Notes: a model not told the origin generated them from the letters alone. Counted from the stretch's first letter, positions 3,089-30,768 are shown. The stretch is 64,000 nt of DNA from an uncultured Anaerolineaceae bacterium (GCA_964575425.1 CAZNRD010000005.1:23851-87850), one strand, 5' to 3'. Program-made: numbers and translations.

Positions 3089-3090
3089 GC

Positions 3091-6469: not shown

Positions 6470-8334
<1,865 letters not shown>

Positions 8335-8341
8335 TTCCTGG

Positions 8342-9625
8342 ATGGGTCCAGTGAGCGGCGTCGCCATTCGAGCGCAAGACCTGGGAAAGCGATATCGGAT
8401 CGGACAGGCAATCCGTCGATACCGTACGCTGCGCGACGCGCTGGTCGAGAATGCCGGGAGGGCCGTCCGTCGCCTGCGTGGGGCGGGGATCGATCGTGAG
8501 GGCACAATCTGGGCACTGAGGCACGCGACCTTTGAAGTGCGACAGGGCCAAGTCCTCGGCGTGATCGGCCGAAACGGGGCTGGCAAGAGCACCCTTCTCA
8601 AACTCCTCGCCCGGATCACGGAGCCTACGGAGGGGATGGCTGAAATCCACGGTCGGGTGGGCTCGCTGCTTGAGGTTGGCACCGGCTTTCACCCTGAGCT
8701 CACCGGGCGGGAGAACATCTACTTGAACGGCGCCATTCTGGGAATGCGGCGGGGGGAGATCAGCCGAAAGTTTGACGAGATCGTGTCGTTTGCTGAAGTC
8801 GAGAAGTTCGTCGACACCCCGGTGAAACGCTACTCAAGCGGCATGTACCTGAGGCTGGCCTTTGCCGTCGCAGCACACCTCGAGCCGGAAATCCTGCTCG
8901 TCGACGAAGTTCTTGCAGTCGGTGACGCCGAATTCCAGCGCAAGTGCCTGGGTAAGATGAGCGCCGTTGCCCATGAAGGCCGGACTGTGCTGTTTGTGAG
9001 CCACAACATGTCGGCCATCGCGCGCCTGACGGAAGAGACGGTCGTGCTTGACGGGGGTCAGATTGTGATGCGTGCGCCCAGCAGCCAGGCCGTGGACTTC
9101 TACATGACCTCTGGGCTGGGGAGGGAAGGGGAACGGTTGTGGCACGAGGATGAGAGGGCGGCCCTGCTGGGGCCTTTTCGCCCGCTGGCCCTTCGCGTGC
9201 GGGATGGGAAAGGCCAGGCGACGGACCAGGTCGCATCGGCACGGCCATTCGACATCGAGTTTGAGTACATGCTTGAGCAGGACCTGGTCGGTCTGCGCGT
9301 GGGACTGTACCTGATGACCGGGCGTGGGGAGCCGGTGTTCACTTCCTTTGACACGGACGATGCGACGAGATTCGAGAAGCTGCCGCAGCGCTCGGCGGGC
9401 CGCTACATCAGTCGCTGCCGCATCCCGCCAAACCTGCTGAACGAGGGCCGCTTCGTGCTGGGCGTCAACGCCAGTTCGTATCGGATGACGTCCTACTTTA
9501 CGGAAGAGCAGGCGCTGACCTTCAACGTCGATGGTACGGGCGCGCCCGGGAGCCACTGGCCGGAGCTGCGCCAGGGCCCAATCCGCCCGGCCCTGGAATG
9601 GGAAATCGAGGAGCTCGATCGATGA
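8342..9625 (+). CDS. wzt: ABC polysaccharide exporter ATPase with ~180-aa C-terminal extension (Wzt-type)
   Basis: ORF 8318..9625; ATG 8342 is preferred (alternatives TTG 8318 and ATG 8324). Walker A GVIGRNGAGKST, signature YSSGMYLRLAFAVA, Walker B ILLVDEVLAVGD. After about residue 250 comes a non-NBD domain (RPFDIEFEYMLEQDLVGLRVGLYLMTGRGEPVF...GRFVLGVNASS), beta-rich like the Wzt C-terminal glycan-binding domain. Confidence 0.8.
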   Translation: MGPVSGVAIRAQDLGKRYRIGQAIRRYRTLRDALVENAGRAVRRLRGAGIDREGTIWALRHATFEVRQGQVLGVIGRNGAGKSTLLKLLARITEPTEGMAEIHGRVGSLLEVGTGFHPELTGRENIYLNGAILGMRRGEISRKFDEIVSFAEVEKFVDTPVKRYSSGMYLRLAFAVAAHLEPEILLVDEVLAVGDAEFQRKCLGKMSAVAHEGRTVLFVSHNMSAIARLTEETVVLDGGQIVMRAPSSQAVDFYMTSGLGREGERLWHEDERAALLGPFRPLALRVRDGKGQATDQVASARPFDIEFEYMLEQDLVGLRVGLYLMTGRGEPVFTSFDTDDATRFEKLPQRSAGRYISRCRIPPNLLNEGRFVLGVNASSYRMTSYFTEEQALTFNVDGTGAPGSHWPELRQGPIRPALEWEIEELDR

Positions 9626-11292
9626 GCAGCACGGCCCGTTCCCTGGCGAAGGAGATCCTGGGATGCATTCCACTGGCAGCGGACGCGGCTCAGAAACTGA
9701 AGCCGAATGGGCCAGTGCCCATCTCGGGTTACTCCCTCGACAGGCTTGCCGGGCTCCTGCCGTCCTGGAAGGAGGCTACACTGCGTTTCCGCCGCAGGGT
9801 CGAAGGGCAGGAGCCGCGCCGGATCCTGGTGTTTGGGTATCTGCGATGGTGGTTGGAATGCTCATGCGCCATCAGCTTGCTCCTCGCGGCGGAAGGGCAC
9901 CGGGTTGACCTCGCGTTTCTGCCCTACCGGCGGTGGACTGAGAGGATGCCCAGGTTCGACACACAGCGGCAGAGCATCTACATGCGGGGCGTATTGGCCG
10001 CTCTCGAACCGGTTGTGCGGATCCTTCCGCTGAGAGCGGGAACCGACCGGGTGCTGAAGCCCGAACTTGAGAGAGCCTTGGAACGGCTCAGCCGGATCGA
10101 CGTGCAGTACACGGAGATGCGCGAGAAGCTTGACCTTGGCCCAACAGGCCGGGACACGCCCTTGCTGCGTCTGCGCCTTGCACGCAACCGGGCCGCCGCG
10201 CGCGCTGCTCAGCGACGGCTGCGCGCCGAGCCCTACGACACGGTTGTTGTCCCGAATGGCGCCATCCTGGAGTTCGGTGCCGTCTATCACGCTGCCCGCA
10301 GCCTGGGCCTGCGCGTTGTGACGTACGAGTTTGGCGAACAGCGGGAACGAGTCTGGCTGTCGCAGGAGGCGGAGGTGATGCGCCTGGACATCACGCCTCT
10401 CTGGGATGTTCGCGGTCAAGACCCCCTCACGCCGGGCGAAATGGAGGCTGTTCGTCGACTACACCGGGCTCGTCGTGGCGCGCGCCTGTGGGCCCACTTT
10501 GGGCGGCAATGGCAGGTGGGCGAAAGCAGCGGCGCGCAAAATGCCCGGAGCCAGCTCGGCCTCGACGCGCGCCATCCGGTGGTTCTCCTGTGCACCAATG
10601 TCGTTGGCGACAGCCTGTCTCTCGGACGGCAGGTGTTCACCGACGGGATGGCGGCCTGGCTGGCTCTTACCGTTCAGTATTTCGCCAGCCGCCCAGAGGC
10701 ACAGCTGATCGTCCGGATTCACCCCGGGGAGTCCTATGGGACCGGTCATCCCTCGGCCGAAATCGTTCGTCAGGCCATGCCAGTCCTTCCCGCCCATGTG
10801 AAAGTTGTCCCGCCCGATTCGGCGATCAACACCTATGATCTGATCGAGCTCGCGCACTTCGGCGTGGTGTACACATCGACCTCGGGGCTGGAGATGGCGA
10901 TGAGCGGTGTCCCGGTTGTCGTCTGTGGCGCCACGCACTATCGCGGCAAGGGATTCACGTACGAACCAGCCTCAGAAAGAGCCTATGTCAGCTTGCTCGA
11001 CGAGCTACTGCGCCAGCCCCTCGGTCGACGGCTGGAGAAGGAGATCGTCGAGAAAGCCTGGCGCTATGCTCACCGGTTCTTCTTTGAGTTCCCGTTTCCG
11101 TTCCCCTGGCACATTGAGCACTTCTGGGAAGACATTGCGGCACGGCCGTTCGAGGAGGTCGTCTCGGAGGCAGGGCGCGCATGCTATCGGTCGACCCTGG
11201 ACGCCATCGCAGGCTGGCCGATTGACTGGCGGGAACGGGCGCGTGAGAGCCAGCAGGCGACGGCGGATGTGATGGCTGAGGCATTCCGGTGA
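9622..11292 (+). CDS. KpsC/KpsS-like (Capsule_synth-type, GT-B) transferase, paralog 1
   Basis: ORF trimmed to ATG 9622 (ATGA overlap with the wzt stop). The blocks LIVRIHPGESYG and VVYTSTSGLEMAMSGVPVVVCGATHYRGKGFT resemble the VKVHPD and VVTSQYGFEALLAGKPV blocks that I recall from E. coli KpsC. Collinear paralog at 31826..33442. Confidence 0.5.
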   Translation: MSSTARSLAKEILGCIPLAADAAQKLKPNGPVPISGYSLDRLAGLLPSWKEATLRFRRRVEGQEPRRILVFGYLRWWLECSCAISLLLAAEGHRVDLAFLPYRRWTERMPRFDTQRQSIYMRGVLAALEPVVRILPLRAGTDRVLKPELERALERLSRIDVQYTEMREKLDLGPTGRDTPLLRLRLARNRAAARAAQRRLRAEPYDTVVVPNGAILEFGAVYHAARSLGLRVVTYEFGEQRERVWLSQEAEVMRLDITPLWDVRGQDPLTPGEMEAVRRLHRARRGARLWAHFGRQWQVGESSGAQNARSQLGLDARHPVVLLCTNVVGDSLSLGRQVFTDGMAAWLALTVQYFASRPEAQLIVRIHPGESYGTGHPSAEIVRQAMPVLPAHVKVVPPDSAINTYDLIELAHFGVVYTSTSGLEMAMSGVPVVVCGATHYRGKGFTYEPASERAYVSLLDELLRQPLGRRLEKEIVEKAWRYAHRFFFEFPFPFPWHIEHFWEDIAARPFEEVVSEAGRACYRSTLDAIAGWPIDWRERARESQQATADVMAEAFR

Positions 11293-12182
11293 ACGCGCCC
11301 CGTGATATTCGGGCCGAAGTGAAGGCCTTCTACGAGGAGGTCGGCTGGCGGGAGATCGGCGAGGGTCTCTATCAGAATGCTCGTTATGAGGACCTGCGTC
11401 CGGTCGCACGGCAGTACATCCGCCGGTGCCACCTCCGCGTGAGTCGGCATCTGCCCGCGCAGGGAAAGAGGTTGCTGGATGCGGGCTCTGGCCCGATTCA
11501 GTATCCGGAGTACCTGGAGTACTCGCGGAAGCATGGCGAAAGGGTATGCCTGGACCTTTCACGCCGGGCCCTGCTCGAGGCGCGCCGCCGCATCGGAGCG
11601 CATGGCCGTTTTGTCGTCGGCGATATCGCCGCGCTCCCCTTTGTGGGAGGAGCATTCGACGGCCTGGTGTCCCTTCACACCCTGCATCATCTTCCCGGCA
11701 GTGAACAGCCCCGGGCCCTTGCCGAAATGGTTCGGGTGTTGGCTCCCGACGGCAGGGGAGTTGCAGTCTACAGTTGGGGCGATCATTCGCCGCTGATGCG
11801 GTTGACGCACTTGCCGATAAGGGTGGCTCTTGGAATCCTTCGCTGGCTCCGCCGTCTCCGCCTGGCCCGTCCTGCCAACCCAGCCCTCGCCGGACAGGGG
11901 GACCAGGCGCCCACGGGGACTTTCACCTGCCAGGTGCCCTATCGCGAACTACGGAAGGCGCTGGGGTTCGTCCCTGGCCTAGAATTTGTCGTGTGGCGCA
12001 CTGTCAGCACATCCTTCCTGCGGGCCTTCATTCACCGTCGCCTGGGCGGGGTCATCTGGCTTCGACTGCTGTACGCGCTCGAGGAGCTCTTCCCGCATGT
12101 GCTGGGGCGTATCGGCCAGTATGCCATGATTGTGTTTCACCGCCCAGGCTTGGGCAGCCCAAGACACGAAGGGACAAGCTAG
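11289..12182 (+). CDS. Class I SAM-dependent methyltransferase (type 11-like)
   Basis: 297 aa with a GTGA overlap on the upstream stop. Motifs: LLDAGSGPIQYPEYL, FVVGDIAALPFVGGAFDGLVSLHTLHHL, LAPDGRGVAVY. Confidence 0.7.
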   Translation: MNAPRDIRAEVKAFYEEVGWREIGEGLYQNARYEDLRPVARQYIRRCHLRVSRHLPAQGKRLLDAGSGPIQYPEYLEYSRKHGERVCLDLSRRALLEARRRIGAHGRFVVGDIAALPFVGGAFDGLVSLHTLHHLPGSEQPRALAEMVRVLAPDGRGVAVYSWGDHSPLMRLTHLPIRVALGILRWLRRLRLARPANPALAGQGDQAPTGTFTCQVPYRELRKALGFVPGLEFVVWRTVSTSFLRAFIHRRLGGVIWLRLLYALEELFPHVLGRIGQYAMIVFHRPGLGSPRHEGTS

Positions 12183-13178
12183 ATGGACTGGACAGGGAAA
12201 GTTGTGCTGGTCACGGGCGGAACGGGATCCTTCGGCCGAAAGTTCGTTGAGATCATGCTGCAGGAGTACCATCCGGCCAAGCTGATCGTGTTCAGCAGAG
12301 ATGAGCTCAAGCAACATGAGATGCGAGTAGCTGGCCTTGAGCACCCGAGCCTGCGCTATTTCATCGGGGATGTGCGTGACTGCGATCGGCTGCGTCGGGC
12401 GATGCACGGGGTTCACATTGTTGTCCACGCGGCTGCGATGAAGCAGGTCCCGGCCTGCGAGTACAACCCGATTGAAGCGATCATGACGAACATCATGGGT
12501 GGCCGCAATGTGGTCGAAGCGGCGCTGGACACACGTGTGGAACGGGTGATGGCCATCAGCACCGACAAGGCCGTCAATCCGGTGAATCTGTACGGGGCCA
12601 CGAAACTGGCGGCGGAGAAGCTGTTCGTGCAGTCCAACTCCTACGCCGGGTCTACGGGGACTCGGTTCTCCTGCGTCCGGTATGGGAATGTGATCGGCAG
12701 CCGCGGCAGTGTTGTCCCCGTCTTCTTGCATCAGCGACACAGCGGGACGATCACGCTCACTGACGATCGCATGACTCGCTTCTGGCTGACGCTGGAGCAG
12801 GGAGTTCGCTTCACCATCCGCTGCATCGCCGAGATGCGGGGCGGGGAGGTGTTCGTGCCGAAGATCCCCAGCATGCGGGTGATCGACCTGGCCCGGGCCA
12901 TTGCTCCCGAAAGTCGGATCGAGCGCATTGGGATACGGCCAGGGGAGAAGCTGCACGAGGTGCTCGTCTCGGAGGACGAAGCGCGCCACACGGTGGAACT
13001 GGGGGATATGTTCGTGGTTCAGCCGCCGGAGGGATTCTGGTTTGGGCGCGAGTGGAGTGAGCGCGGAAGAGCGCTGCCAGAGGGTTTCCTCTACGCCAGT
13101 GATACGAACGATCGGTGGCTGACTCTCGAGGATATCCAGACCCTGGCGCTACCGGTTGAGGGCCGGGAGCGCGAGTAG
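12183..13178 (+). CDS. pseB: UDP-N-acetylglucosamine 4,6-dehydratase (inverting), PseB/FlaA1 type
   Basis: 331 aa. Motifs: VLVTGGTGSFGRKF, FSRDELKQHEM, YFIGDVRDCDRL, HAAAMKQVPACEYNPIEAIMTNIMG, STDKAVNPVNLYGATKLAAEKLF, RFSCVRYGNVIGSRGSVVP, RMTRFWLTLEQGV, GIRPGEKLHEVL. This is near-collinear with the PseB consensus rather than CapE/FnlA. Confidence 0.85.
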   Translation: MDWTGKVVLVTGGTGSFGRKFVEIMLQEYHPAKLIVFSRDELKQHEMRVAGLEHPSLRYFIGDVRDCDRLRRAMHGVHIVVHAAAMKQVPACEYNPIEAIMTNIMGGRNVVEAALDTRVERVMAISTDKAVNPVNLYGATKLAAEKLFVQSNSYAGSTGTRFSCVRYGNVIGSRGSVVPVFLHQRHSGTITLTDDRMTRFWLTLEQGVRFTIRCIAEMRGGEVFVPKIPSMRVIDLARAIAPESRIERIGIRPGEKLHEVLVSEDEARHTVELGDMFVVQPPEGFWFGREWSERGRALPEGFLYASDTNDRWLTLEDIQTLALPVEGRERE

Positions 13179-13188
13179 GTGATCAGCC

Positions 13189-14139
13189 GTGGCTCGAGTG
13201 ATGATCACCGGTGCCAGCGGCCTGCTGGGCGCCAATCTAGTCCTGGACGCCCTGGGAGCAGGCCATCAGGTGATCGCCGTGTCCTTTCGGCATGCTGTGC
13301 GGCATCCGAAGGTTGAGTCAGTGGCGGCTGATCTGAGCTGCCCGGGCGAGGCCCGAAGGATCCTGGGCGATTGGCGACCACAGTGGGTGGTGCACTGCGC
13401 GGCAGCCACCGACGTTGATGCCTGCGAGGCAGAGCCGGTCAAGGCCTTCCGCCTCAACCGAGACATGGCGGGGCAGGTGGCGATGGCGGCGCGCGCCGTT
13501 GGTGCCCGCTTGGTGCACATCTCGACAGATGCGGTCTTTGACGGAGAGAGAGGCGATTACACGGAGGACGACGAACCCCATCCGATCAACGTGTACGGGG
13601 AGAGCAAACTCGAGGGCGAGCGGGTTGCCCGCCATGAGCATCCGGAGGCGCTGATCGTGAGGACCAACATCTATGGCTGGAATGCCCAGCCCAAACAGTG
13701 CCTGTCGGAATGGTTCCTCTCCAGACTTCGGGCTGGCCGGGAGTCCCCCGGCTTCGTGGATGCATGGTTCTCGCCGATCCTGGCGAAGGACCTCGGGGCG
13801 ATCCTGTTGCGACTCCTGAGCGAGGGGAGAGTCGGAGTCTGGCATGTTGGAGGCCGGGACTGCCTGAGCAAGTTCGACTTCGGGGTCTTGATCGCCCAGG
13901 TGTTTGGGCACAATTCCCACCTGATCAAGCCCGAGGCGATGCAGGACAGCCGGCTCCGGGCGCGCCGGGGGAGGCGCCTCTGCCTTCAGTCAAGCCGTAT
14001 GCCGACCCTGGACGGGGTTCAGCTTCCACACGTGTACGAGGGATTGAGACGCTGGAAACGACAGGAGAGAGAGGGCACGACCGTGGAGCTTCGTCGCCTC
14101 GTGACTTCGGAGGGAGAGGCCTGTAACCGGGATGTATGA
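13189..14139 (+). CDS. RmlD-like NAD(P)-dependent sugar 4-ketoreductase (dTDP-4-dehydrorhamnose reductase family)
   Basis: 316 aa from GTG 13189; ATG 13201, giving MITGASGLLGANL, is an equally good start. Motifs: VVHCAAATDVDACEAEP, LVHISTDAVFDGERGDYTEDDEPHPINVYGESKLEGE. Confidence 0.7.
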   Translation: MARVMITGASGLLGANLVLDALGAGHQVIAVSFRHAVRHPKVESVAADLSCPGEARRILGDWRPQWVVHCAAATDVDACEAEPVKAFRLNRDMAGQVAMAARAVGARLVHISTDAVFDGERGDYTEDDEPHPINVYGESKLEGERVARHEHPEALIVRTNIYGWNAQPKQCLSEWFLSRLRAGRESPGFVDAWFSPILAKDLGAILLRLLSEGRVGVWHVGGRDCLSKFDFGVLIAQVFGHNSHLIKPEAMQDSRLRARRGRRLCLQSSRMPTLDGVQLPHVYEGLRRWKRQEREGTTVELRRLVTSEGEACNRDV

Positions 14140-14956
14140 AGTACTCGAGGTCTCCCTGGGAGACACCCCCCGACTGTTCCGGTATCACCAGGACGGCGTC
14201 TATGGCGCGCAGTTCAATCTGAAGGGCTTCGCCTACCCATGGCTGGTGTCCTCAAGGTCGTGGTCGAAAGCCGAACGCGTGCTTGATGTCGGCGGCGGCT
14301 ACTCGGACCTGCCAGTCTACCTTGCCAATGCATTTGGCTGCGAAGTGTGGGTAGTGGATGACTTTGGCATGGCCAGCGGCGAACCCTTCTGGAAGCGACG
14401 TCGTGATCCTTGTGAGCATGCCCGCGCTCATCCTGAGGTCCGCTTTACTTTCGAGCGGCTCGGAGACCCCCGCCTATCGAGCCTGCCTGCCGGGGGCTTC
14501 GACTGTGTCTACAGCCTATCGACGCTTGAACATGTGCCGGCCGAGAAGACCGCGGATGTCTGGAGCCACATGGATCATCTCCTTCGCCCGGGCGGTGAGA
14601 TGCTGCATTCGGTGGACCTGGGATTTCCTGTGAAACGCGGGATGGCATCGGTTCTCAAGGCCATCGCAATCGACGCGGTGTTCGGAGCGATACCGGCAAC
14701 CATGAGACGCAGATACATCTTTCACACACCGCGGGCCTATGCGCGCTTCGTCGTTTGCTCGGTGCTCAGGGCACCGTTGCGGCAAGACGTCCAACTTGCG
14801 GTGAGCCGAATGGTCTTCGACCCCGAGGTTGTCGCCGAATCGATGGAGAACACGTACAACAGGATGATCAAGGACGGCGTGACCCATGTGCGCCACGGCA
14901 AGACCGGGACACTGTTGCTTCGACTGCGAAAGCTGGAGGAGAGGAGCTTGCCATGA
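14132..14956 (+). CDS. Class I SAM-dependent methyltransferase
   Basis: 274 aa with an 8-nt overlap on the upstream gene. Motifs: RVLDVGGGYSDLPVYLANAFGCEVWVVDDF, FDCVYSLSTLEHV, LRPGGEMLHSVDL. Confidence 0.65.
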   Translation: MYEVLEVSLGDTPRLFRYHQDGVYGAQFNLKGFAYPWLVSSRSWSKAERVLDVGGGYSDLPVYLANAFGCEVWVVDDFGMASGEPFWKRRRDPCEHARAHPEVRFTFERLGDPRLSSLPAGGFDCVYSLSTLEHVPAEKTADVWSHMDHLLRPGGEMLHSVDLGFPVKRGMASVLKAIAIDAVFGAIPATMRRRYIFHTPRAYARFVVCSVLRAPLRQDVQLAVSRMVFDPEVVAESMENTYNRMIKDGVTHVRHGKTGTLLLRLRKLEERSLP

Positions 14957-16026
14957 GCGGAGAAATCCGGATCCTGGACCGTTGGATCGGAGCAGGCCAC
15001 CCAACCTACTTCATTGCAGACATCTCGGCGAATCATGATGGCGACCTGAGCCGTGCGAAGCGGCTGATCCATCTCGCCGCTGAGGCCGGCGCGGACGCGG
15101 CCAAGTTCCAGAACTTCCGGGCCCCAAAGATCGTCAGCGACTACGGTTTCCGCACGATGGGCTTGCAGGTTTCCCACCAGGCGGGCTGGAAGAAGTCGGT
15201 CTATGAGGTCTACGCCGATGCATCCATCCCCTTCGAATGGACACCGGAACTGAAGGTCACCTGCGCCGAGGCCGGCATCCACTACTTCTCGTCGCCCTAC
15301 GACTTTGAAGCGGTCGATGTGTTGGACCCTCATGTGCCGGCTCACAAGATCGGCTCGGGCGATATCACCTGGCTGGAGATCATTCGTTACATTGCAGGCA
15401 AGGGGAAGCCGGTGTTTCTGGCCACGGGAGCCTCGGAGATCGGCGATGTTCAGCGTGCCGTTCATGCGGTGCTGGAGATCAACCCTCAATTGGTCCTGAT
15501 GCAGTGCAACACCAACTACACTGCCAGTCCAGACAACTTTGACGACATGCACCTGAATGTGCTCAAGACCTATGGAACCATGTTCCCGGAAGTGGTGCTG
15601 GGCCTGTCCGACCACACCCCTGGGCACGCGACGGTTCTGGGAGCCGTTGCCCTCGGGGCGCGCGTTATCGAGAAGCACTTCACGGATGACAACCGGCGAA
15701 TCGGCCCCGATCATCCCTTTTCCATGACCCCCGAGACCTGGCGGGAAATGGTTGACCGGACACGCGAGCTGGAGAAGGCCTTGGGATCTGCCGACAAACG
15801 CGTGGCAGATAACGAGAGGGAGACAGTTGTGATTCAGCGCCGCTGCCTGCGGGCGGCGCGCGACATCTGCTCCGGGGAGGTGCTCACCCGAGGCATGATC
15901 GATGTCCTGCGACCGGCCGCCGCAGGAGCCATTCCGCCGTTTGAGATCGAGTCCGTTGTGGGCACGCGAGCGCTTGTGGATATCCCGGCTGGCGAGGTGC
16001 TGCGCTGGACGATGCTGGGATCGTGA
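14953..16026 (+). CDS. NeuB-family nonulosonic acid synthase (PseI/LegI/NeuB-like) with C-terminal SAF domain
   Basis: ORF 14755..16026 trimmed to ATG 14953 (ATGA overlap). The N-terminus IGAGHPTYFIADISANHDGDLSRAKRLIHLAAEAGADAAKFQNF is the NeuB TIM-barrel opening. The C-terminus RRCLRAARDICSGEVLTRGMIDVLRP...IPAGEVLRWTML is SAF-like. Confidence 0.85.
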   Translation: MSGEIRILDRWIGAGHPTYFIADISANHDGDLSRAKRLIHLAAEAGADAAKFQNFRAPKIVSDYGFRTMGLQVSHQAGWKKSVYEVYADASIPFEWTPELKVTCAEAGIHYFSSPYDFEAVDVLDPHVPAHKIGSGDITWLEIIRYIAGKGKPVFLATGASEIGDVQRAVHAVLEINPQLVLMQCNTNYTASPDNFDDMHLNVLKTYGTMFPEVVLGLSDHTPGHATVLGAVALGARVIEKHFTDDNRRIGPDHPFSMTPETWREMVDRTRELEKALGSADKRVADNERETVVIQRRCLRAARDICSGEVLTRGMIDVLRPAAAGAIPPFEIESVVGTRALVDIPAGEVLRWTMLGS

Positions 16027-16047
16027 GCATCGGGGAGCGAGGACAGG

Positions 16048-16299
16048 TTGAGCCAACAGAACGATCGCTTCCGGCAGGAAGTCAAGGACCTGATCAGTGA
16101 GGTCTTCAATCTGCCGCGAGAGACAGTGAGCGATCAGCTTGCCTTTGGGGAGATCTCGGAGTGGGATTCCCTGGGCCACATGGACCTGCTCATGGCTCTT
16201 GAGTCCCGCTACGACATCCCGCTGGATGAGGAGCTGATCACCAGGCTTGTATCCGTGGAAGCCATCTGCACGTATCTGCGGGAGCGGGATCATGCATGA
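16048..16299 (+). CDS. Acyl/aminoacyl carrier protein (phosphopantetheine-binding)
   Basis: 83 aa from a TTG start, with SD GGGGAG/GAGGA 4-11 nt upstream. FGEISEWDSLGHMDLLMALESRYDI contains the DSL-type attachment serine context of carrier proteins. Confidence 0.75.
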   Translation: MSQQNDRFRQEVKDLISEVFNLPRETVSDQLAFGEISEWDSLGHMDLLMALESRYDIPLDEELITRLVSVEAICTYLRERDHA

Positions 16300-17491
16300 G
16301 TACACCATTCACCTGGGGGAGGCAATGCGCATCCCAGACTTCCTGGTTGGCGATGTGCAGTCGCGGCTGGCCTACGTGGATGAGGCCATCGCAACCGTGG
16401 CAGTGGCGGCGGATGGCATGAGCATTCGCTTGAGCGCGCAACAAGAACTGGTCCCAGGCCATCTTGCAGAGATCGAGTCGAAGGTCGGACGCGTTATCCG
16501 GGCGATGGTGCCTGGGGCGGTGAGGCCGCGTCAGAAGGTGCTGGAGGATCAGCTCGACCGGCCGGTGCCCAACGCGCAGGATCCCCTTCCGAACCTGGTA
16601 GAGAGAGGGGAGGTGGTACAGGAGGGATCGGGCATTGTCGTTCTAGGCCCCACGATGAGTGCCCTGATCGACTTTTTTGAGAGGCACTTTGTGGAGCTCG
16701 CCCATTCTTTTGGGGCAGTTGGCTACCGGTTCCCGGCACTCATTTCGCCGGAACTCCTGGAGCGGGTCGACTACTTCCGATCCTTCCCGCACTCGCTCAG
16801 CTTCGTGTGCCACATGCGGGAAGACCTGGACGCAATCGAGAAGTTCTCGCAAGAGGCTCGTTGTGATCGTGGTCATCTGCAGATGGACCGGGCGGCGCTC
16901 TCGGCAGTGAGCGCGCTGCTCTCCCCAGCAGTCTGTTTCCATTGCTACGGCGCCCTTGCCGGGAGGCGCCTGCGAGGGGGTCTGTGTGCGACAGCAGTTG
17001 GCAGCTGCTTTCGCTATGAGTCCAGCAACATGGCCGGGGTGGAAAGGTTGTGGAACTTCAGCATGAGGGAGATCATCTTCGTAGGTCCTAAGGATTTCGT
17101 TCTTGAGAGCCGTGAGGCAGCGCGCAAGAAAGTGGCCGACCTGTTGATGGCCTGGGGGTTTGCATACCGGGTCGAAGGCGCGAGCGATCCGTTCTTCGTT
17201 GGCGATTTCAAGAAGCAGGTTGCCTTTCAGAGTGCCTTTCAGCTCAAGTATGAGATCCGGGCTTCCATACCGCACCGGGCCGGGACGCTGGCCGTCGGCT
17301 CCTTCAACTTCCACCAGGACTTCTTTGGGCGTCACCTAGACATCAGCCTGGACGATGGTTCGCCGGCCTTCACAGGCTGTGTGGCGTTCGGCCTTGAGCG
17401 CATGGCGTATGCCTTCGTGGCGCAGTACGGTCTTGCCTCATCCAACTGGCCCGACGCCGTGCGCCATGGGCTGGCAAGCCCGTGGGCGTGA
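16292..17491 (+). CDS. Amino acid--[acyl-carrier-protein] ligase (class-II aaRS catalytic-core homolog, methanogen-type SerRS-like)
   Basis: ORF trimmed to ATG 16292, with an 8-nt overlap on the ACP stop. Motifs: RFPALISPELLERVDYFRSFPHSLSFVCHM, AVCFHCYGAL, GSCFRYES (motif 2-like), ASDPFF, GSFNFHQDFFG, GCVAFGLERMAYAF (motif 3-like). No coiled-coil tRNA-binding arm or anticodon domain is visible. Confidence 0.7.
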   Translation: MHEYTIHLGEAMRIPDFLVGDVQSRLAYVDEAIATVAVAADGMSIRLSAQQELVPGHLAEIESKVGRVIRAMVPGAVRPRQKVLEDQLDRPVPNAQDPLPNLVERGEVVQEGSGIVVLGPTMSALIDFFERHFVELAHSFGAVGYRFPALISPELLERVDYFRSFPHSLSFVCHMREDLDAIEKFSQEARCDRGHLQMDRAALSAVSALLSPAVCFHCYGALAGRRLRGGLCATAVGSCFRYESSNMAGVERLWNFSMREIIFVGPKDFVLESREAARKKVADLLMAWGFAYRVEGASDPFFVGDFKKQVAFQSAFQLKYEIRASIPHRAGTLAVGSFNFHQDFFGRHLDISLDDGSPAFTGCVAFGLERMAYAFVAQYGLASSNWPDAVRHGLASPWA

Positions 17492-17514
17492 GGCCGCTGT
17501 GAGCGGATGGTTCA

Positions 17515-18309
17515 ATGAAAGAAGTGACCCTGGCCCAGGTAATCGATAGTCTAGAAGCCGTCGGCGTCGGCCGAGGAGACGGGGTGCTTGTGCATTCGGC
17601 CATCCAGTACTTTGGCCGGCCTGTCAGCGGGGTTCCGATGTACTGGAAGGCCTTCGAGGTGGTCCTTGGCCCGGAGGGGACACTGGCCGTTCCGGCGTTC
17701 AATTTCGGATTTGCCCGGGGCGAGCCCTTTGACGCGCGGCACACACCCTCCGACCAGATGGGTCTGCTGGCTGAGTACATCCGGTGCCTGCCCAATGCCA
17801 GGCGCAGCCCGCACCCCCTGCAATCTGTGGCCGTCGTCGGTCGCTGGGCCGCGGATATTGCGGCGCGTGATACACCGTCTGCCTTTGATCCGGGTTCAGG
17901 GTTTGAGAGGATGCTCGAGCTCGATTTCCTCATGGTCCTCCTGGGGGCCAGCATCCAGGTCGCCTCGATTGTCCACTACAGCGAACAGAAGGCGCGGGTG
18001 CCGTATCGGTATTGGAAGACTTTTCACGGCACGGTGGTGCGGGGCGGCGCTGCAGTAGTGGCAGAATACCGGATGTTCGCTCGAGATCTGGCACTGGACC
18101 CGCAAAACGACTTCGGGCCCGTACAGACTTGGCTGGAAGGACGAGGACTGTGGCGGCAGGCCCGACTCAACTACGGGCATGTGGCTGCCTGCCGGCTGCG
18201 CGATGTTGTTGCCGCCGCGGATGACCTGTTGGCCCACAATCCATGGGCATTGGTCAAGGATGGCGAGAGGATGAGGGAGCTGGCGGCGGGGATGAGTCGT
18301 GACGTATAA
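17515..18309 (+). CDS. AAC(3)/Antibiotic_NAT-fold N-acyltransferase homolog
   Basis: 264 aa. GVGRGDGVLVHSAIQYFGRPVSGVPMYWKAFEVVLGPEGTLAVPAFNFGF...PSDQMGLLAEYIRCLPNARRSPHPLQSVAVVG is the aminoglycoside 3-N-acetyltransferase family pattern. Confidence 0.7.
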   Translation: MKEVTLAQVIDSLEAVGVGRGDGVLVHSAIQYFGRPVSGVPMYWKAFEVVLGPEGTLAVPAFNFGFARGEPFDARHTPSDQMGLLAEYIRCLPNARRSPHPLQSVAVVGRWAADIAARDTPSAFDPGSGFERMLELDFLMVLLGASIQVASIVHYSEQKARVPYRYWKTFHGTVVRGGAAVVAEYRMFARDLALDPQNDFGPVQTWLEGRGLWRQARLNYGHVAACRLRDVVAAADDLLAHNPWALVKDGERMRELAAGMSRDV

Positions 18310-19450
18310 GGACGGAATGGACGAGCGCGTCAGGGTCCTCTATGTCTCGCAAGGCTACACGCCGCACGACTACCGTTTCCTTTCCGGGCTGGCCAGCTCG
18401 GGGCACGAAGTGTTTCACCTGCGATTCAACGCAGCCGCGTGTAGCGAGACCCGTCCGCTTCCGGCCGGCGTGGGCCCTGTGGATTGGAAGGCCAATCGGC
18501 CGCGCCCTCGTGTCTGGAATGTGCCGTTCCTGGCGCGCCGCCTGGCCAGTGTTCTGGCGCGCATCCGGCCGGATCTGGTCCACGCGGGGCCGATCCAGCA
18601 GGGAGCTGCCCTTGCCGCGCTGAGTGGCTTTCGCCCCATCGTGGCCATGTCGTGGGGTTCGGACCTACTGATCGAGGGCGCTTCGGGGCTTGGCCGACTG
18701 ATCGCCCGCTACGCCTTGCAGCGGTCTGCTGCCCTCCTTTGTGACTGCCAGGCGGTGCGCATGGCGGCCGAGCGCCTTGGTTTTGCGAGTGACCGAATCG
18801 TTGTCTTTCCATGGGGGGTGGACCTGGTGCATTTCCGTCCGGGTGATGACGCAGGGCTTCGTGCCCGCCTGGGGTGGAGCGACGGCATCGTCGTGCTGTC
18901 AACTCGTTCGTGGGAGAGCGCCTACGGGATTCCCGAGCTGGTGGAAGGGTTCATCCAGGCTGGCGCCGACATCCCGCAACTGCGCCTGCTGATGTTGGGG
19001 GGAGGCTCTCTCGGAGATACGATGCAGAGACGCCTGAAAGCGGCGGGGATGATGAACCGAGTGCATCTGGCCGGGTGGGTCTCCTACCAGGAACTGCCTC
19101 ACTACTACTGTGCAGCGGACATCTACGTCAGCGCCTCTCATGCCGATGGCAGTTCAGTGTCGCTTCTGGAGGCGATGGCCTGCGGGCTCCCGGCCATCGC
19201 TTCCAACATCCCGGGGAATCAGGAGTGGGTTTCTCCTGGGGTGACCGGTTGGCTCTTTCCGGTGGGCAGTGCCGCACACTTGGCGGAGGCCATTCGGCAG
19301 GCGGTCGAAGGCCAAACGCAATGGTCGGCACTAGGTGCCCGGGCGCGTCAGCAAGCCGTCGAGCGGGCGGACTGGGCGCGCAATTTCCCCCGCATCCACG
19401 AGGCCTATCGGATGGCGTTGATGGCCAGGGGGACCAGTGCCCGCAGCTAA
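18299..19450 (+). CDS. Glycosyltransferase family 4 (GT-B)
   Basis: 383 aa from GTG 18299 (ATG 18317 alternative, with AAGGA upstream). RVLYVSQGYTPHDYRF at the N-terminus; C-terminal E-x7-E region YCAADIYVSASHADGSSVSLLEAMACGLPAIASNIPGNQEWV. Confidence 0.8.
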   Translation: MTYKDGMDERVRVLYVSQGYTPHDYRFLSGLASSGHEVFHLRFNAAACSETRPLPAGVGPVDWKANRPRPRVWNVPFLARRLASVLARIRPDLVHAGPIQQGAALAALSGFRPIVAMSWGSDLLIEGASGLGRLIARYALQRSAALLCDCQAVRMAAERLGFASDRIVVFPWGVDLVHFRPGDDAGLRARLGWSDGIVVLSTRSWESAYGIPELVEGFIQAGADIPQLRLLMLGGGSLGDTMQRRLKAAGMMNRVHLAGWVSYQELPHYYCAADIYVSASHADGSSVSLLEAMACGLPAIASNIPGNQEWVSPGVTGWLFPVGSAAHLAEAIRQAVEGQTQWSALGARARQQAVERADWARNFPRIHEAYRMALMARGTSARS

Positions 19451-20195
19451 GCGGCCGATCCTGGCCATCATTCAGGCGCGCATGGGCTCGACACGGCTCC
19501 CCGGAAAGATATTGGCCGACATCGGGGGCCAGCCGATGCTGGTGCGCGTTGTCGAACGCGCCCGCCGGGCAAGCAGCCTCGACGGCGTGATTGTCGCGAC
19601 TACGACTCAGACAGAGGATGATGTGGTCGAACACCTGTGCGCTCAACGAGGCTACCCATGCCGCCGCGGCCACCCGACCGACGTGCTCGACCGGTACTAT
19701 CGTGTCGCACGAGAGGCAGGGGCAGGTGTGGTCGTTCGACTGACGGCGGACTGCCCCCTGATTGACCCGGCTCTCATTGATCAAGTGGTCGAAGCCTTCC
19801 TGTCGTCTGAGCCGCCCGCCGACTTTGCTGCCAACCGGCTCCCAAGCGAGCGGACTTTCCCGATCGGCCTCGACGTTGAGGTGTGCACGTTTGCTGCTCT
19901 GGCGCGGGCCTGGGCGGAAGCCGAAGAAGCCTACCAACGTGAGCATGTCATGCCCTATCTCTATGAGCGGCCAGGTCGCTTTCGCGTCCTTCTGTTCCGC
20001 TGCGAGCGTGATCTCAGCCATCTCCGATGGACAGTCGACACGGCCGCAGATCTGGAATTGGTGCGCAGGATCTATGCCCATTTCGGGGAGCGGGACGATT
20101 TCGCCTGGCAGGAAGTGCTTAGCTTGGTTGAGCGGAATCCATCCTTAAGTGAAATCAACGCTGACGTCCGCCAGCGAACGCTCGGAGGGATGTGA
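19437..20195 (+). CDS. SpsF/PseF-like cytidylyltransferase (CTP_transf_3 family)
   Basis: 252 aa with a GTG start. Motifs: ILAIIQARMGSTRLPGKILADIGGQPMLVRVVERA, VIVATTTQTEDDVV, VVRLTADCPLIDPALIDQVV. Confidence 0.75.
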   Translation: MPAAKRPILAIIQARMGSTRLPGKILADIGGQPMLVRVVERARRASSLDGVIVATTTQTEDDVVEHLCAQRGYPCRRGHPTDVLDRYYRVAREAGAGVVVRLTADCPLIDPALIDQVVEAFLSSEPPADFAANRLPSERTFPIGLDVEVCTFAALARAWAEAEEAYQREHVMPYLYERPGRFRVLLFRCERDLSHLRWTVDTAADLELVRRIYAHFGERDDFAWQEVLSLVERNPSLSEINADVRQRTLGGM

Positions 20196-21658
20196 TGATT
20201 GGTCGATCCCGCTGGCAGCTGCGCCCTCTTCGCGCCATTCCTCGTGGATACGTCTCTCGTTCACTGGATTGGCACGAACTGGCCGCAGAAGCTGGCGAGG
20301 AGTTCGAACGTCTTCTTCCCATCCGCCGCAGCCTGACGGGAGAGGGTGTACGCCAGACGCTTGAATACCTGAAATCGGTGTCCCCCTTCGACATCAAGGA
20401 GATTCCGTCGGGCACGCGCTGCTACGACTGGGAGGTGCCGCAAGAATGGAGCATCCGCGACGCGTATGTGGCCACGCTGGACGGTCGAAGGGTGATCGAT
20501 CTTCAGCGCAGCAACCTGCACGTCGTCGGACACAGTCTGCCGATTGACGCGGAGATGTCCTTTGACGAGCTCGACTCTCACTTGCACACCCTGCCTGCGG
20601 AGCCGAAGGCGATCCCGTATCGGACAAGCTACTACCAGGCCAACTGGGGTTTCTGCCTGACACACGAAGCGTATCAGCAGTTGGACCGCCGTGCGCGCTA
20701 CAGGGTGGTTATTGATTCCACCCTGCGGCCCGGCTCGCTCACCTATGGCGAAGCACGCCTCGCGGGCTGCTCGGGGCGGGAGTTCCTGGTTTCCACGTAT
20801 TGCTGTCATCCGTCCATGGTCAATGACAACCTGTCTGGAATGGTGCTTTGGAGCCTGTTGCTTCGAGAGCTGAGAAGGCAGCCAACCTGGCATACCTATC
20901 GGTTTGTGATCGTGCCTGAGACGATAGGCGCGATTGCCTATCTGCACCGCAACGAGCGCGCAATGCGCCGGCTCGAAGCAGCTCTGGTCGTGGCGACCGT
21001 CGCCGGGCCAGGGCCACTGGGCTACAAGCAGTCCTTCTTGGGGACCCACCTCATTGATCGGGCCATTCGCCGAAGCTTCGCGGAACTCGGGATCGAGCCG
21101 CTGACGTATCCATTTGACGTGAACGGGAGCGATGAGCGCCAGTTTTCCTCGCCATATTTCCGCATCCCCTGCGCCACCATCTGCAAGGACAAGTACCACG
21201 AGTACCGGTACTATCACACATCCTTGGATGACCTGGCTTTTGCGCGACCGGAATACCTCGTGGAAACGCTGAGGCTCTATCTCCTCACGATCGAAAAACT
21301 CGAAGCGGACCGGGCCTATCGCTCGGTGGTCTTGCGCGGGGAGCCGATGCTGGGGAAGCGGGGATTGTACCCGCAGACCGGGGGTTCGATACGGCAGAAG
21401 GCGGCAGCTCTAGACGGGGGTCGGGGCGAGCAGGGCGATCTGCCCAGCGGGAACGACATTGCGCGTGGCGATGAGCTGGACGCGATGCGGTGGTTGATGT
21501 TCTGGGGAGATGGCCGGACGACCTTGTTCGAGATTGGAGAGCGCATCGGCCTGCCGGTGGGGCAGCTGGTGCGGACGGCTGAGCGCCTGGTGCAGCACGG
21601 ACTCCTTGAGCCAGTCCCTGATCGACGCCGATCGGGCCCGGTCTGGCGGGCGAAGTGA
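20192..21658 (+). CDS. Aminopeptidase-like (M28-fold, DUF4910/COG4310-type) polysaccharide-biosynthesis protein with C-terminal winged helix
   Basis: 488 aa with a GTGA overlap. LPIRRSLTGEGVRQTLEYLKSVSPFDIKEIPSGTRCYDWEVPQEWSIRDAYV matches my recollection of this family. The C-terminal LFEIGERIGLPVGQLVRTAERLVQHGLL is wHTH-like. Confidence 0.55.
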   Translation: MMIGRSRWQLRPLRAIPRGYVSRSLDWHELAAEAGEEFERLLPIRRSLTGEGVRQTLEYLKSVSPFDIKEIPSGTRCYDWEVPQEWSIRDAYVATLDGRRVIDLQRSNLHVVGHSLPIDAEMSFDELDSHLHTLPAEPKAIPYRTSYYQANWGFCLTHEAYQQLDRRARYRVVIDSTLRPGSLTYGEARLAGCSGREFLVSTYCCHPSMVNDNLSGMVLWSLLLRELRRQPTWHTYRFVIVPETIGAIAYLHRNERAMRRLEAALVVATVAGPGPLGYKQSFLGTHLIDRAIRRSFAELGIEPLTYPFDVNGSDERQFSSPYFRIPCATICKDKYHEYRYYHTSLDDLAFARPEYLVETLRLYLLTIEKLEADRAYRSVVLRGEPMLGKRGLYPQTGGSIRQKAAALDGGRGEQGDLPSGNDIARGDELDAMRWLMFWGDGRTTLFEIGERIGLPVGQLVRTAERLVQHGLLEPVPDRRRSGPVWRAK

Positions 21659-22605
21659 TCACCATCTTCTCTGCGCCCAAGCCCTTTCGCGGGCATGTCG
21701 CCACGATCCAGCACAACGCCCTGGCCTCCTGGACAGCCCTCGGCAATGGTGTGCAGGTGCTGCTACTCGGGGATGAGGTCGGTGTGGCAGAGGCAGCCGC
21801 GGAGGCTGGGGTCCGGCACTTGCCATCGGTCGCCCGCAATGAACAGGGCACTCCCCTTCTCAGCTCGATCTTTGAGCTCGCCCATCAGGCGGCAAGCCAC
21901 CATACGCTGTGCTATGTGAATGCCGACATCTTGCTGCTTGATGACTTCCTTGCGGCGGTGCAGAGCGCACGCGACCGGTTCTCTCGCTTTCTGCTCATTG
22001 CCCGTCGCTGGGACCTTGATGTGCGCGAGAGGCTGCGGCTTGATGCGGCGTGGTGTTCTGCGCTCCGGAGCCGAATTGCGGCGGAGGGAACGCTGCATCC
22101 ACCGACGGGCAGTGACATTTTCGTCTTTCCTCGCTGCATGTTCCAACGCCTGCCCGATTTCGCCTTGGGTCGCTCGGGCTGGGACAACTGGATGATTTTC
22201 GCCGCCCGGCGAGCGCGTGTCCCGGTGATCGATGCCACGGAGTCGGTGACCGTTGTGCATCAGCTTCACGACTACAGTCACTTGCCCGGGGGAGAGCCAC
22301 ACTACCGCCTCCCCGAGAGCCGTCGCAATGTCGCCATGGTCGGCGGGCGAGCAGCGGTGTTCACTATCCTGGACGCGTCCTGGCGCCTCGGAGCCGGCGG
22401 CCTGGAGAAGAAACCCTGGAACGCGGCCGGGTGCGGACGCGCCGTAGAGGCGGAGATCTACGCGATCCTGGGCCTGCCCATGCTGATCCGGTGGGCCCGC
22501 CTCGCATTGCACCCATTCGAGACGATCCGCTACTATTCCACTGCTGCCTGGCGCCGGCTGAGAAGGCTGTTGGGCGCAGCTTCGTCGTTGTTGGCAAGGA
22601 GATAG
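21655..22605 (+). CDS. Conserved hypothetical protein, possibly GT-A-fold transferase
   Basis: 316 aa with a GTGA overlap. The opening ITIFSAPKPFRGHVATIQHNALASWTAL...VLLLGDEVG...ARNEQGTPLL...LCYVNADILLLDDF resembles an uncharacterised family that I have seen annotated as hypothetical or glycosyltransferase. No canonical motif could be confirmed. Confidence 0.35.
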   Translation: MITIFSAPKPFRGHVATIQHNALASWTALGNGVQVLLLGDEVGVAEAAAEAGVRHLPSVARNEQGTPLLSSIFELAHQAASHHTLCYVNADILLLDDFLAAVQSARDRFSRFLLIARRWDLDVRERLRLDAAWCSALRSRIAAEGTLHPPTGSDIFVFPRCMFQRLPDFALGRSGWDNWMIFAARRARVPVIDATESVTVVHQLHDYSHLPGGEPHYRLPESRRNVAMVGGRAAVFTILDASWRLGAGGLEKKPWNAAGCGRAVEAEIYAILGLPMLIRWARLALHPFETIRYYSTAAWRRLRRLLGAASSLLARR

Positions 22606-26577: not shown

Positions 26578-26581
26578 GAGC

Positions 26582-27709: not shown

Positions 27710-27738
27710 GAAGCGAGCCCGCCCAGACCGACCTGGAG

Positions 27739-27754
27739 CGGTGTGCTGCCACAC
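27739..27754 (+). terminator. GC-rich hairpin without U-tract (weak terminator candidate)
   Basis: GGTGTG-ctgc-CACACC, 30 nt after the stop at 27709, inside a 106-bp gap. No T-run follows, so function is uncertain. Confidence 0.2.
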
Positions 27755-27815
27755 CCTCGGTCAGAACTGCCCATCGGCGGGACGTTGGCGGCCAGGGCGC
27801 TGGAGGAGGCCGGAT

Positions 27816-30737: not shown

Positions 30738-30768
30738 CCAGGGGCGTTGCCTGAAACGGAGGGCGGCG

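Follow-up and report, generated by a model that had tools for sequence, protein, structure and literature searches.

Gene content and synteny of a nonulosonic acid gene block from an uncultured Anaerolineaceae bacterium suggest a possible reductive route to a 3,5,9-trideoxy sugar

Background

Nonulosonic acids, such as the sialic, legionaminic and pseudaminic acids, shape cell-surface recognition. The canonical pseudaminic and legionaminic routes require a dehydratase, an aminotransferase, an N-acetyltransferase, a hydrolase, a synthase and a cytidylyltransferase, and to our knowledge all the characterised bacterial routes to 9-deoxy nonulosonic acids go via a 4-amino sugar. The question taken up in this paper is what kind of sugar could be made by a block of genes that encodes a PseB-type dehydratase, an RmlD-like reductase, a NeuB-family synthase and a cytidylyltransferase, but no recognisable PseC, PseH or PseG. 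The block lies at positions 12183-20195 of a 64 kb stretch of DNA from an uncultured Anaerolineaceae bacterium (GCA_964575425.1, CAZNRD010000005.1:23851-87850), which is a portion of a 113,627 bp NCBI contig; this stretch is referred to as the window, and all the positions are counted from its first letter.

We propose, tentatively and with a little less than even confidence, that these genes encode the central part of a self-contained route leading to a CMP-activated 5-acetamido-3,5,9-trideoxy nonulosonic acid with a hydroxyl group at C7, in which a GT4-family protein would act as the hydrolase. The support comes from gene identities, gene content and synteny, on which all the activities described below are predicted.

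The core genes of the block

Five genes carry the proposed route, and a methyltransferase gene is inserted among them:

12183-13178, + strand: PseB, UDP-GlcNAc 4,6-dehydratase of the 5-inverting type (TIGR03589, 480.2 bits; cut-off 407.75)
13189-14139, + strand: RmlD-like reductase of the extended short-chain dehydrogenase/reductase (SDR) family, proposed UDP-4-keto-6-deoxy-HexNAc 4-ketoreductase (PF04321, 188.7 bits)
14132-14956, + strand: MT2, class I methyltransferase (Pfam), a variable insert between the reductase and NeuB
14953-16026, + strand: NeuB-family nonulosonate synthase (PF03102, 243.6 bits) with a SAF domain (PF08666, 47.3 bits)
18299-19450, + strand: GT4-family protein of the GT-B type, proposed UDP-sugar hydrolase and PseG analogue (Glycos_transf_1, 102.7 bits)
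19437-20195, + strand: CTP_transf_3 (SpsF/PseF-like) cytidylyltransferase, predicted to catalyse CMP activation (PF02348, 128.2 bits)

By homology the first of these proteins is a PseB-type dehydratase, for which inversion at C5 is predicted. Its top match in the PDB is FlaA1 of Helicobacter pylori (2GN4; 362.6 bits, ~58% identity), compared with 234 bits for Pen (6BWC), 221 for CapE and 129 for PglF, and its motif, of the D-K...YxxxK type, reads STDKAVNPVNLYGATK. The reductase looks active, judging by its conserved Rossmann motif and S/Y/K catalytic residues: TGxxGxxG, S112/D114, Y136 and K140 are invariant in 29 homologues. The start given by NCBI lies 12 nt later (312 aa). The reaction of RmlD is the reduction of a 4-keto-6-deoxy-L-hexose, and the PseB product belongs to the same substrate class. 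A role as the RmlD of rhamnose biosynthesis was ruled out, since the protein scores 197.7 bits against the RmlD equivalog TIGR01214, under the cut-off of 224.05, and rmlA and rmlC are absent from the window, where Pfam scans found no match to NTP_transferase (RmlA) or dTDP_sugar_isom (RmlC). The MT2 gene is found in only ~6 related loci.

The synthase falls below both equivalog cut-offs of its family (NeuB, 269.6 vs 399.65 bits; PseI, 252.6 vs 340.25), and its PDB matches are SpsE (167 bits), PseI (152) and NmNeuB (152). The cytidylyltransferase likewise scores 32.5 bits against the PseF equivalog, for which the cut-off is 205.7. An initial annotation of the window, made from its sequence, had called the dehydratase, the reductase following it, the methyltransferase and the cytidylyltransferase in the same way, and the TIGR03589, 2GN4, PF04321, Pfam and PF02348 matches bear it out. 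It had also recognised the synthase with its SAF domain; both domains are real, but the start it gave, 14755, has to be moved to the ATG at 14953, which overlaps the stop codon of MT2 as ATGA.

Missing canonical steps in the window

For the search for the missing enzymes, 51 plus-strand open reading frames (ORFs) and the 9 longest minus-strand ones were scanned with Pfam. Among these 60 ORFs there was no match to DegT_DnrJ_EryC1 (PF01041), the aminotransferase family of PseC, or to the PseG-type Glyco_tran_28_C. A DegT/PseC hidden Markov model (HMM) was trained on 26 such proteins of related loci and searched, unfiltered, against the stop-to-stop segments (50 aa or longer) of all six frames of the window; its best E-value was 0.34. 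No Epimerase_2 match in the window exceeded its threshold, the sole one (18.5 vs 30.6 bits) being in a second KpsC-like protein, and the Pfam scans yielded no GNAT match of the PseH type. The initial annotation, which had reported no DegT/PseC, PseG/NeuC or GNAT protein, therefore holds for the 64 kb. As to the acetyltransferase, it was right that no PseH-type GNAT is present, but an N-acyltransferase of another type, AAC(3)/Antibiotic_NAT, is nonetheless encoded within the block at 17515-18309.

The proposed route and its known relatives

In the route that we propose, PseB, identified by homology, would convert UDP-GlcNAc to UDP-2-acetamido-2,6-dideoxy-hex-4-ulose, the 4-keto group of which would be reduced by the RmlD-like SDR with NAD(P)H, giving a UDP-6-deoxy-HexNAc, most simply UDP-6-deoxy-L-AltNAc. 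The GT4 protein, assigned by elimination and synteny, would release the free aldose in PseG's stead, and the NeuB/SAF synthase would condense this aldose with phosphoenolpyruvate (PEP) to a 5-acetamido-3,5,9-trideoxy-non-2-ulosonic acid with a 7-hydroxyl group (C11H19NO8, 293 Da), which the CTP_transf_3 enzyme would then convert to the CMP-sugar. In the Chloroflexota, a KpsC/KpsS-like transferase encoded beside Wzt would add the sugar to a glycan exported by Wzm/Wzt, possibly as a chain-terminating cap that is read by the C-terminal domain of Wzt.

This scheme resembles the canonical pseudaminic acid pathway of Campylobacter jejuni and H. pylori (PseB, C, H, G, I and F) in its first enzyme, in the NeuB+SAF and CTP_transf_3 families, and in the succession from a UDP-sugar to a free 6-deoxy-aminohexose, condensation with PEP and CMP activation. 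It differs in that the window has the RmlD-like reductase and the GT4 protein instead of PseC, PseH and PseG, that the synthase and the cytidylyltransferase score under the PseI and PseF cut-offs, and that the predicted product carries a hydroxyl at C7, not an acetamido group. The combination of a 5-inverting dehydratase followed by an SDR 4-ketoreductase is also known from the pathways to UDP-2-acetamido-2,6-dideoxy-L-hexoses (CapE/FnlA/WbjB with CapF/FnlB/WbjC; WbvB with WbvR and WbvD), and WbvR is itself RmlD-like. In the window, however, the dehydratase is of the PseB type, there is no 2-epimerase, and what we propose for the reduced sugar is its release and then its extension to a nine-carbon acid, not its transfer as a hexosamine. 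An L-HexNAc pathway of the FnlA/WbvB type was ruled out, as TIGR04130 gave 229.2 bits against a cut-off of 730 and no 2-epimerase is present. The reductase was also considered as a Pal, the partner of Pen in Bacillus thuringiensis; this was rejected, as no PDB match of the reductase up to an E-value of 0.01 was a Pal, as judged on molecule names, and the dehydratase is FlaA1-like, not Pen-like.

The initial annotation had pointed out that mono-amino 3,5,9-trideoxy-nonulosonic acids exist in nature, with fusaminic acid as the example. This is indeed the case: the O-antigen of Fusobacterium nucleatum ATCC 25586 contains L-6dAltNAc and a 5-acetimidoylamino-3,5,9-trideoxy-nonulosonic acid together (PMC13014188). 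Fusaminic acid thus co-occurs with 6-deoxy-L-AltNAc, the very intermediate predicted here, but it is known as a chemical structure, and its N5 carries an acetimidoyl group. In the literature searched we found no other natural 5-amino-3,5,9-trideoxy-nonulosonic acid and no assignment of genes to that of F. nucleatum, no published assignment of a PseB-reductase-NeuB pathway or of trideoxy-nonulosonate genes in general, and nothing on nonulosonates in the Chloroflexota. While nonulosonate biosynthesis as such is known, the replacement of PseC, PseH and PseG by an RmlD-like reductase and a GT4 protein, and the wide spread of this arrangement, are not described in the literature searched.

Synteny across related loci

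The block was compared with 5 annotated contexts and with 80 further loci from a profile scan of one genome per GTDB species, annotated by BLASTP against the window proteins. A locus was called fully flanked if at least 8 kb was available on both sides (n = 59). The reductase homologues that are 50-82% identical come mainly from Chloroflexota/Anaerolineales metagenome-assembled genomes (MAGs). The 5 annotated contexts share the order MarR regulator, SDR epimerase, Wzm, Wzt, KpsC/S-like protein of ~550 aa, methyltransferase and PseB, followed by the reductase, NeuB+SAF, GT4, CTP_transf_3, a family-less protein of ~315 aa and a GT2 protein, and none of the 5 has a PF01041 protein within 10 kb.

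All five core genes, i.e. those of PseB, the reductase, NeuB, GT4 and the cytidylyltransferase, are present in 50 of the 59 fully flanked loci. NeuB lies directly downstream of the reductase in 52/59, the contiguous reductase-NeuB-GT4 triad occurs in 50/59, and the cytidylyltransferase is found in 54/58. The bacterial hosts belong to the Chloroflexota, Acidobacteriota, Armatimonadota, Elusimicrobiota, Verrucomicrobiota, Nitrospinaceae, Desulfobulbaceae and Omnitrophota, and there are two archaeal MAGs, of the Methanomicrobiales and the Halobacteriales. In several loci, such as L062 and L074 (Acidobacteriota), L035 (Anaerolineae) and L067 (Verrucomicrobiota), the five tightly packed genes make up the whole operon and leave no room for pseC; tight operons of this kind that lack an aminotransferase gene within 10 kb occur in four phyla. 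The surrounding glycan-assembly genes are wholly different from phylum to phylum, with Wzm/Wzt and the KpsC-like protein in the Chloroflexota and other sets in the Acidobacteriota. Because the order of the triad is kept while the flanking assembly genes change, and because the operons are compact, the five genes appear to form a precursor-biosynthesis cassette. In three Acidobacteriota loci (L047, 6825-9995; L049, 6851-9994; L046, 5604-8690) a single ORF of ~1050 aa encodes a GFO/IDH/MocA oxidoreductase domain followed by the cytidylyltransferase, and its extra C-terminal part (~440 aa) has no assignment.

The recurrent neighbours of the Chloroflexota loci include neither an aminotransferase, of whatever class, nor a known hydrolase. 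As judged with the DegT HMM in a range of 10 kb around the reductase, a DegT protein is present in 2 of the 28 fully flanked Chloroflexota loci and there is none in the other 26; 7 of the 23 fully flanked Acidobacteriota loci also have none. The initial annotation had left two options, that the missing steps are encoded outside the window or that the 4-keto intermediate is reduced rather than aminated. The synteny and the DegT-free Chloroflexota loci make reduction the best supported of these, and the option of a pseC gene outside the window, though unlikely, has to be weighed seriously.

Co-occurrence with PseC

Several observations weigh against a reductive route, and a good part of them would favour an alternative, namely a pseudaminic-type pathway to a 5,7-diamino sugar, for which the aminotransferase and perhaps the N-acetyltransferase are encoded elsewhere in the genome or contig. 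In such a pathway the RmlD-like enzyme would serve a side branch or an epimer-setting step, and the AAC(3)-like enzyme would take over the acylation of N7 from PseH. We regard this alternative as unlikely, but its probability is appreciable. In its favour, 26 of the 84 loci tabulated have a DegT gene no more than 10 kb from the reductase (clustering of unassigned ORFs retrieved a DegT protein in 24 loci), and these include 16 of the 23 fully flanked Acidobacteriota loci. Most Acidobacteriota loci place the DegT gene directly after PseB, often followed by a TIGR03587 'Pse-associated methylase', and the DegT protein of L040, which stands beside PseB in a locus with the same reductase, NeuB and GT4, scores as a genuine PseC equivalog (TIGR03588, 474.6 bits; cut-off 423.5). 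The reductase is kept with or without PseC; if reduction took the place of amination, both enzymes would be drawing on one substrate.

The synthase does not track PseC either. In the Acidobacteriota the identity of NeuB is 74-77% within a PseC class and 75% between the classes, and NeuB, the reductase, PseB and GT4 are no closer within the PseC-positive or the PseC-negative class than between them. The nearest neighbours of NeuB are often of the opposite class (84-89% identity), so that the two classes are phylogenetically intermixed, and the substrate of the synthase may thus be the same in both, which would also fit a pseC located elsewhere. N-aminoacylated and N-glyceroylated nonulosonates are known, and the window encodes both an N-acyltransferase and an aminoacyl-carrier system; in the 7-hydroxy model the AAC(3)-like enzyme has no obvious free amine to act upon, which is a mild argument for a sugar with a 7-amino group. 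Moreover, the absence of pseC holds for the 64 kb of the window, whereas the source contig measures 113.6 kb, with 49.6 kb beyond the window, and an off-cluster pseC has been proposed for Clostridium beijerinckii (PMC13317340). Two further points bear on individual steps of the reductive route. Pdeg, a PseB homologue with 46-47% identity, leaves C5 uninverted (PMC4514872), and because homologues at this level of identity can be non-inverting, more than one configuration of the product is conceivable; and no GT4-family UDP-sugar hydrolase was found described in the literature searched.

Against the diamino alternative, it would need an off-cluster pseC in 26 of the 28 Chloroflexota loci, despite the syntenic regulator, exporter, transferase and other steps, and it leaves the gene constantly joined to NeuB without a role. 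Across the related loci, no N-acetyltransferase (PseH) and no PseG-like gene is correlated with PseC, and hence the PseC-positive loci are not canonical pseudaminic acid clusters either; furthermore, NeuB and the cytidylyltransferase miss the PseI and PseF equivalog cut-offs. A weaker point comes from the best 120 homologues of the DegT protein of one Chloroflexota cassette, none of which is on a contig of the size of the source contig or of the contigs with PseC-less cassettes (2.09 Mb, 247 kb, 96 kb and 66 kb). The co-occurrence may mean that PseC is an optional addition, which draws a side branch off the common 4-keto intermediate, and the second cytidylyltransferase and second GT-B protein encoded in three PseC-bearing loci (L028, L033 and L043) would fit two such branches; alternatively, PseC may always be needed, and be encoded elsewhere in the PseC-less loci.

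The GT4 protein and the hydrolase question

The reductive route also requires that the UDP-sugar be hydrolysed before the condensation with PEP, for which the GT4 protein is the candidate replacement of PseG, because the cassette has no other GT-B candidate and because its gene follows that of NeuB almost invariably. The protein has a complete two-domain GT-B architecture (Glycos_transf_1 and Glyco_transf_4). Its EX7E motif reads DX7E, with Asp in 67 of 67 family members, in the pattern SDG(S/T)S(V/I)SLLEAMA, and this oddity fits the assignment as a putative hydrolase.

The protein could also be an ordinary glycosyltransferase, in which case the block would make two products: PseB and the reductase would provide a UDP-6-deoxy-HexNAc (6-deoxy-L-AltNAc, or a QuiNAc/FucNAc-like sugar) as the donor of the GT4 enzyme, and NeuB and the cytidylyltransferase would turn a common sugar into an ulosonic acid unrelated to that donor. 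The complete architecture would suit this arrangement, as would the resemblance of the protein to UDP-GlcNAc-using GT4 enzymes (BshA, 80 bits; MshA, 70 bits). L-6dAltNAc is a normal glycan residue in F. nucleatum (PMC13014188), and pairs of a PseB-like enzyme and a 4-reductase that make UDP-QuiNAc are established (PMC4514872). Nevertheless, we consider the two-product arrangement improbable. It leaves NeuB without a supply of substrate, as the cassette has no NeuC/2-epimerase or AGE-type epimerase; a separate Kdn/Neu-like set, with a cytidylyltransferase-HAD fusion and a short NeuB, already exists at 28634-30737; and the reductase-NeuB-GT4 order is kept across differing assembly genes, which is expected of a precursor cassette and not of an acceptor-specific transferase. 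All the remaining readings taken together are given a still smaller chance.

Export, transfer and decoration genes

The core genes are embedded in a longer array, translationally coupled by overlaps of 4-14 nt from the KpsC/S-like gene through the 316-aa ORF. The accessory genes are as follows:

5981-6469, + strand: MarR/HTH_24 regulator (Pfam), conserved as the first gene of the locus in its Chloroflexota form
6494-7480, + strand: extended-SDR epimerase/dehydratase (PF01370, 182 bits), accessory to the five-gene core and found in Chloroflexota loci only
7477-8334, + strand: Wzm, ABC-2 permease (Pfam), syntenic in relatives
8318-9625, + strand: Wzt, ABC ATPase with a C-terminal Wzt_C carbohydrate-binding domain (Pfam), syntenic in relatives
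9598-11292, + strand: KpsC/KpsS-like (Capsule_synth) GT-B protein of 564 aa, candidate CMP-nonulosonate transferase (PF05159, 26.9 bits; cut-off 20)
11289-12182, + strand: MT1, class I S-adenosylmethionine-dependent methyltransferase (Methyltransf_11, 59.7 bits), directly upstream of PseB in Chloroflexota
16048-16299, + strand: carrier protein (PP-binding) of 83 aa with a WDSLGH phosphopantetheine site (DSL motif; PF00550, 28.4 bits)
16292-17491, + strand: putative amino-acid:[carrier-protein] ligase with a SerRS-like class II core without the tRNA-binding domain (NF005479, 161.6 bits; cut-off 357)
17515-18309, + strand: AAC(3)/Antibiotic_NAT acyltransferase, proposed to transfer a carrier-bound aminoacyl group to the sugar (PF02522, 126.4 bits)
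20192-21658, + strand: DUF4910/DUF2172/HTH_47 metallopeptidase-like protein of the CA_C2195 family, partner of the AAC(3)-like enzyme (PF16254, 248 bits; PDB 3K9T, 323 bits)
21655-22605, + strand: conserved protein of 316 aa, encoded after the cytidylyltransferase in the Chloroflexota loci and in no others (27 or more homologues among the related loci; no Pfam or NCBIfam match)

The MarR regulator is syntenic in L003, L005-L007 and ~30 further loci. Wzm and Wzt are predicted, from their gene families, to form an ABC-transporter export route for the glycan. The 564-aa protein is a distant member of the KpsC/KpsS families, which comprise CMP-ulosonic acid transferases such as KpsS1 (GT118), KpsC/KpsS (GT107) and WbbB (GT99); its similarity to them is weak, as the only match of a PDB profile search was KpsC, at an E-value of 4.5e-4 (26.9 bits in Pfam), and no NCBIfam model matched it. 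It has a KpsC-like paralogue at 31754-33442, beside the second ulosonate gene set (hhalign, 98.9% probability). For KpsS1, pseudaminyltransferase activity is proven, and WbbB adds beta-Kdo as a cap to O-antigens that depend on an ABC transporter (PMC12887879). Given these precedents and the location of the paralogue beside ulosonate genes, it is reasonable by analogy that the KpsC-like enzyme would add the nonulosonate, maybe as a terminal signal that is read by Wzt_C. MT1 was labelled in 38 of the 84 loci, all of them of Chloroflexota, and is missing from 9 Chloroflexota loci. The identification of MT1 or MT2 with the TIGR03587 'Pse-associated methylase' was rejected, because hhalign gave only a generic class I methyltransferase likeness.

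Between NeuB and the cytidylyltransferase lie four genes that the initial annotation had not itemised, namely those of the carrier protein, the ligase, the AAC(3)-like enzyme and the GT4 protein. The ATG of the ligase gene overlaps the stop codon of the carrier protein gene, and the ligase scores 117 and 94 bits against archaeal-type SerRS models. Among the loci examined, this pair (16048-17491) occurs only in the window and in L002. The amino-acid:[carrier-protein] ligases of Bradyrhizobium and Agrobacterium (Bll0957 type) have a truncated archaeal-type SerRS core and an adjacent DSL carrier protein, features that the window protein seems to share, but it stays well below their equivalog cut-off and lies inside a nonulosonate operon. 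Such an operon would be a rare functional context for this family, and would point to a later step that uses the aminoacyl-carrier protein.

The AAC(3)-like gene adjoins that of DUF4910 in at least 8 related loci, and the two accompany the cassette in both the Chloroflexota and the Acidobacteriota. The gene neighbourhood of the DUF4910 protein of C. acetobutylicum, CA_C2195, was noted in 2014 (PMC4000134). It is like the window in bringing DUF4910 together with spsE (NeuB+SAF), an adjacent glycosyltransferase, spsF, an acyl carrier protein and an N-acetyltransferase for aminosugars; it differs in being a flagellin glycosylation island, later predicted to make pseudaminic acid, with an ATP-grasp ligase and no RmlD-like gene reported. 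On the plasmid NZ_CP021332.1 of Maritalea myrionectae, a cultured alphaproteobacterium (loci L088 and L089), the AAC(3)-like domain shares one polypeptide with an FkbH-like HAD domain and adjoins an SDR-carrier-protein fusion, DUF4910, PseB and a NeuB that is 54% identical to that of the window. There is no DegT in 30 kb at this locus, and a different SDR of 291 aa stands in place of the RmlD-like reductase. The same plasmid also encodes an AGE epimerase, a sialyltransferase and a second NeuB. Maritalea could serve as an experimental model.

The fusion and its neighbourhood support the use of carrier-protein-bound acyl donors by the AAC(3)-like enzyme. In the window the aminoacyl-tRNA synthetase-like ligase would load this donor, an aminoacyl group, and the candidate acceptors are a hydroxyl group, or N5 following de-N-acetylation. 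In 7 Chloroflexota loci (L007, L011, L020, L021, L022, L025 and L053) a PIG-L de-N-acetylase and a methyltransferase are encoded ~8 kb downstream of the reductase, a recurrence that hints at N-deacetylation and re-acylation chemistry on the sugar. The methyltransferases on the one hand, and the carrier, ligase, AAC(3)-like and DUF4910 set on the other, would act as variable decorating modules; the suggestion of the initial annotation that the sugar is possibly O-methylated or aminoacylated fits this gene content.

Taken to its full extent, the proposal would be that the five genes form a complete and widespread pathway and the genetic basis of fusaminic-type sugars, that the DX7E GT4 protein was recruited as the hydrolase, that in the Chloroflexota a KpsC/KpsS-like enzyme adds a cap that is read by Wzt, and that the carrier/ligase/AAC(3)-like/DUF4910 module aminoacylates the sugar. 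That all these parts hold jointly is rather doubtful.

Other features of the window

The G+C content is ~64% across the window. The credible genes of the 64 kb are all on the plus strand, with frequent overlaps of 4-14 nt and gaps of at most ~300 nt, the two ends of the window excepted. tRNA and Rfam scans found no tRNA gene and no Rfam match in it.

A second ulosonic acid gene set extends over 25453-33442. It encodes a GFO/IDH/MocA oxidoreductase, an LPG_synthase_TM membrane protein, an SDR, the CTP_transf_3-HAD phosphatase fusion (28634-29869), the short NeuB without SAF (29862-30737, 291 aa), a protein of 365 aa without a family match, and the second KpsC/KpsS-like protein (31754-33442). 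The set resembles Kdn/Neu-9-phosphate-type pathways and is kept downstream of the cassette in L059, L064, L070, L080 and L081, all of Chloroflexota. A third CTP_transf_3 cytidylyltransferase gene (41989-42801), with no synthase gene adjoining, lies among genes of membrane glycosyltransferases of the GT-C type.

Polytopic glycosyltransferases of the PMT_2/PMT (GT39/GT83-like) and GT87 families are unusually concentrated in 35227-51785 (35227-36588, 37642-39195, 38712-40862, 40859-42100, 47929-49836 and 49134-51785), which suggests an extracytoplasmic, polyprenyl-phosphate-sugar-dependent glycan assembly in the Chloroflexota envelope. A methyltransferase-GT2 fusion of 496 aa is encoded at 52006-53496, and seven ORFs of 460-740 aa without a Pfam match lie within 857-4851, 33348-35198, 43106-46098, 57176-58840 and 61464-63455, although the rest of the locus abounds in recognisable glycan genes.

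Conclusion

If the proposed route is true, a fourth biosynthetic logic, a reductive one, would be added to those of nonulosonic acids, and the origin of the only 3,5,9-trideoxy nonulosonate known to us would be explained. The sugar made could then be predicted from a genome by whether it has the reductase, alone or together with PseC. The analysis also nominates a new function for a GT4 subfamily and places two orphan families, DUF4910 and the amino-acid:carrier-protein ligases, in a biological setting; the ligases would, if true, gain a physiological role through the aminoacylation of a sugar. The hosts of the cassette belong to abundant, mostly uncultured phyla of soil, sediment and sludge, such as the Chloroflexota and the Acidobacteriota, whose surface and extracellular glycans are largely uncharacterised.

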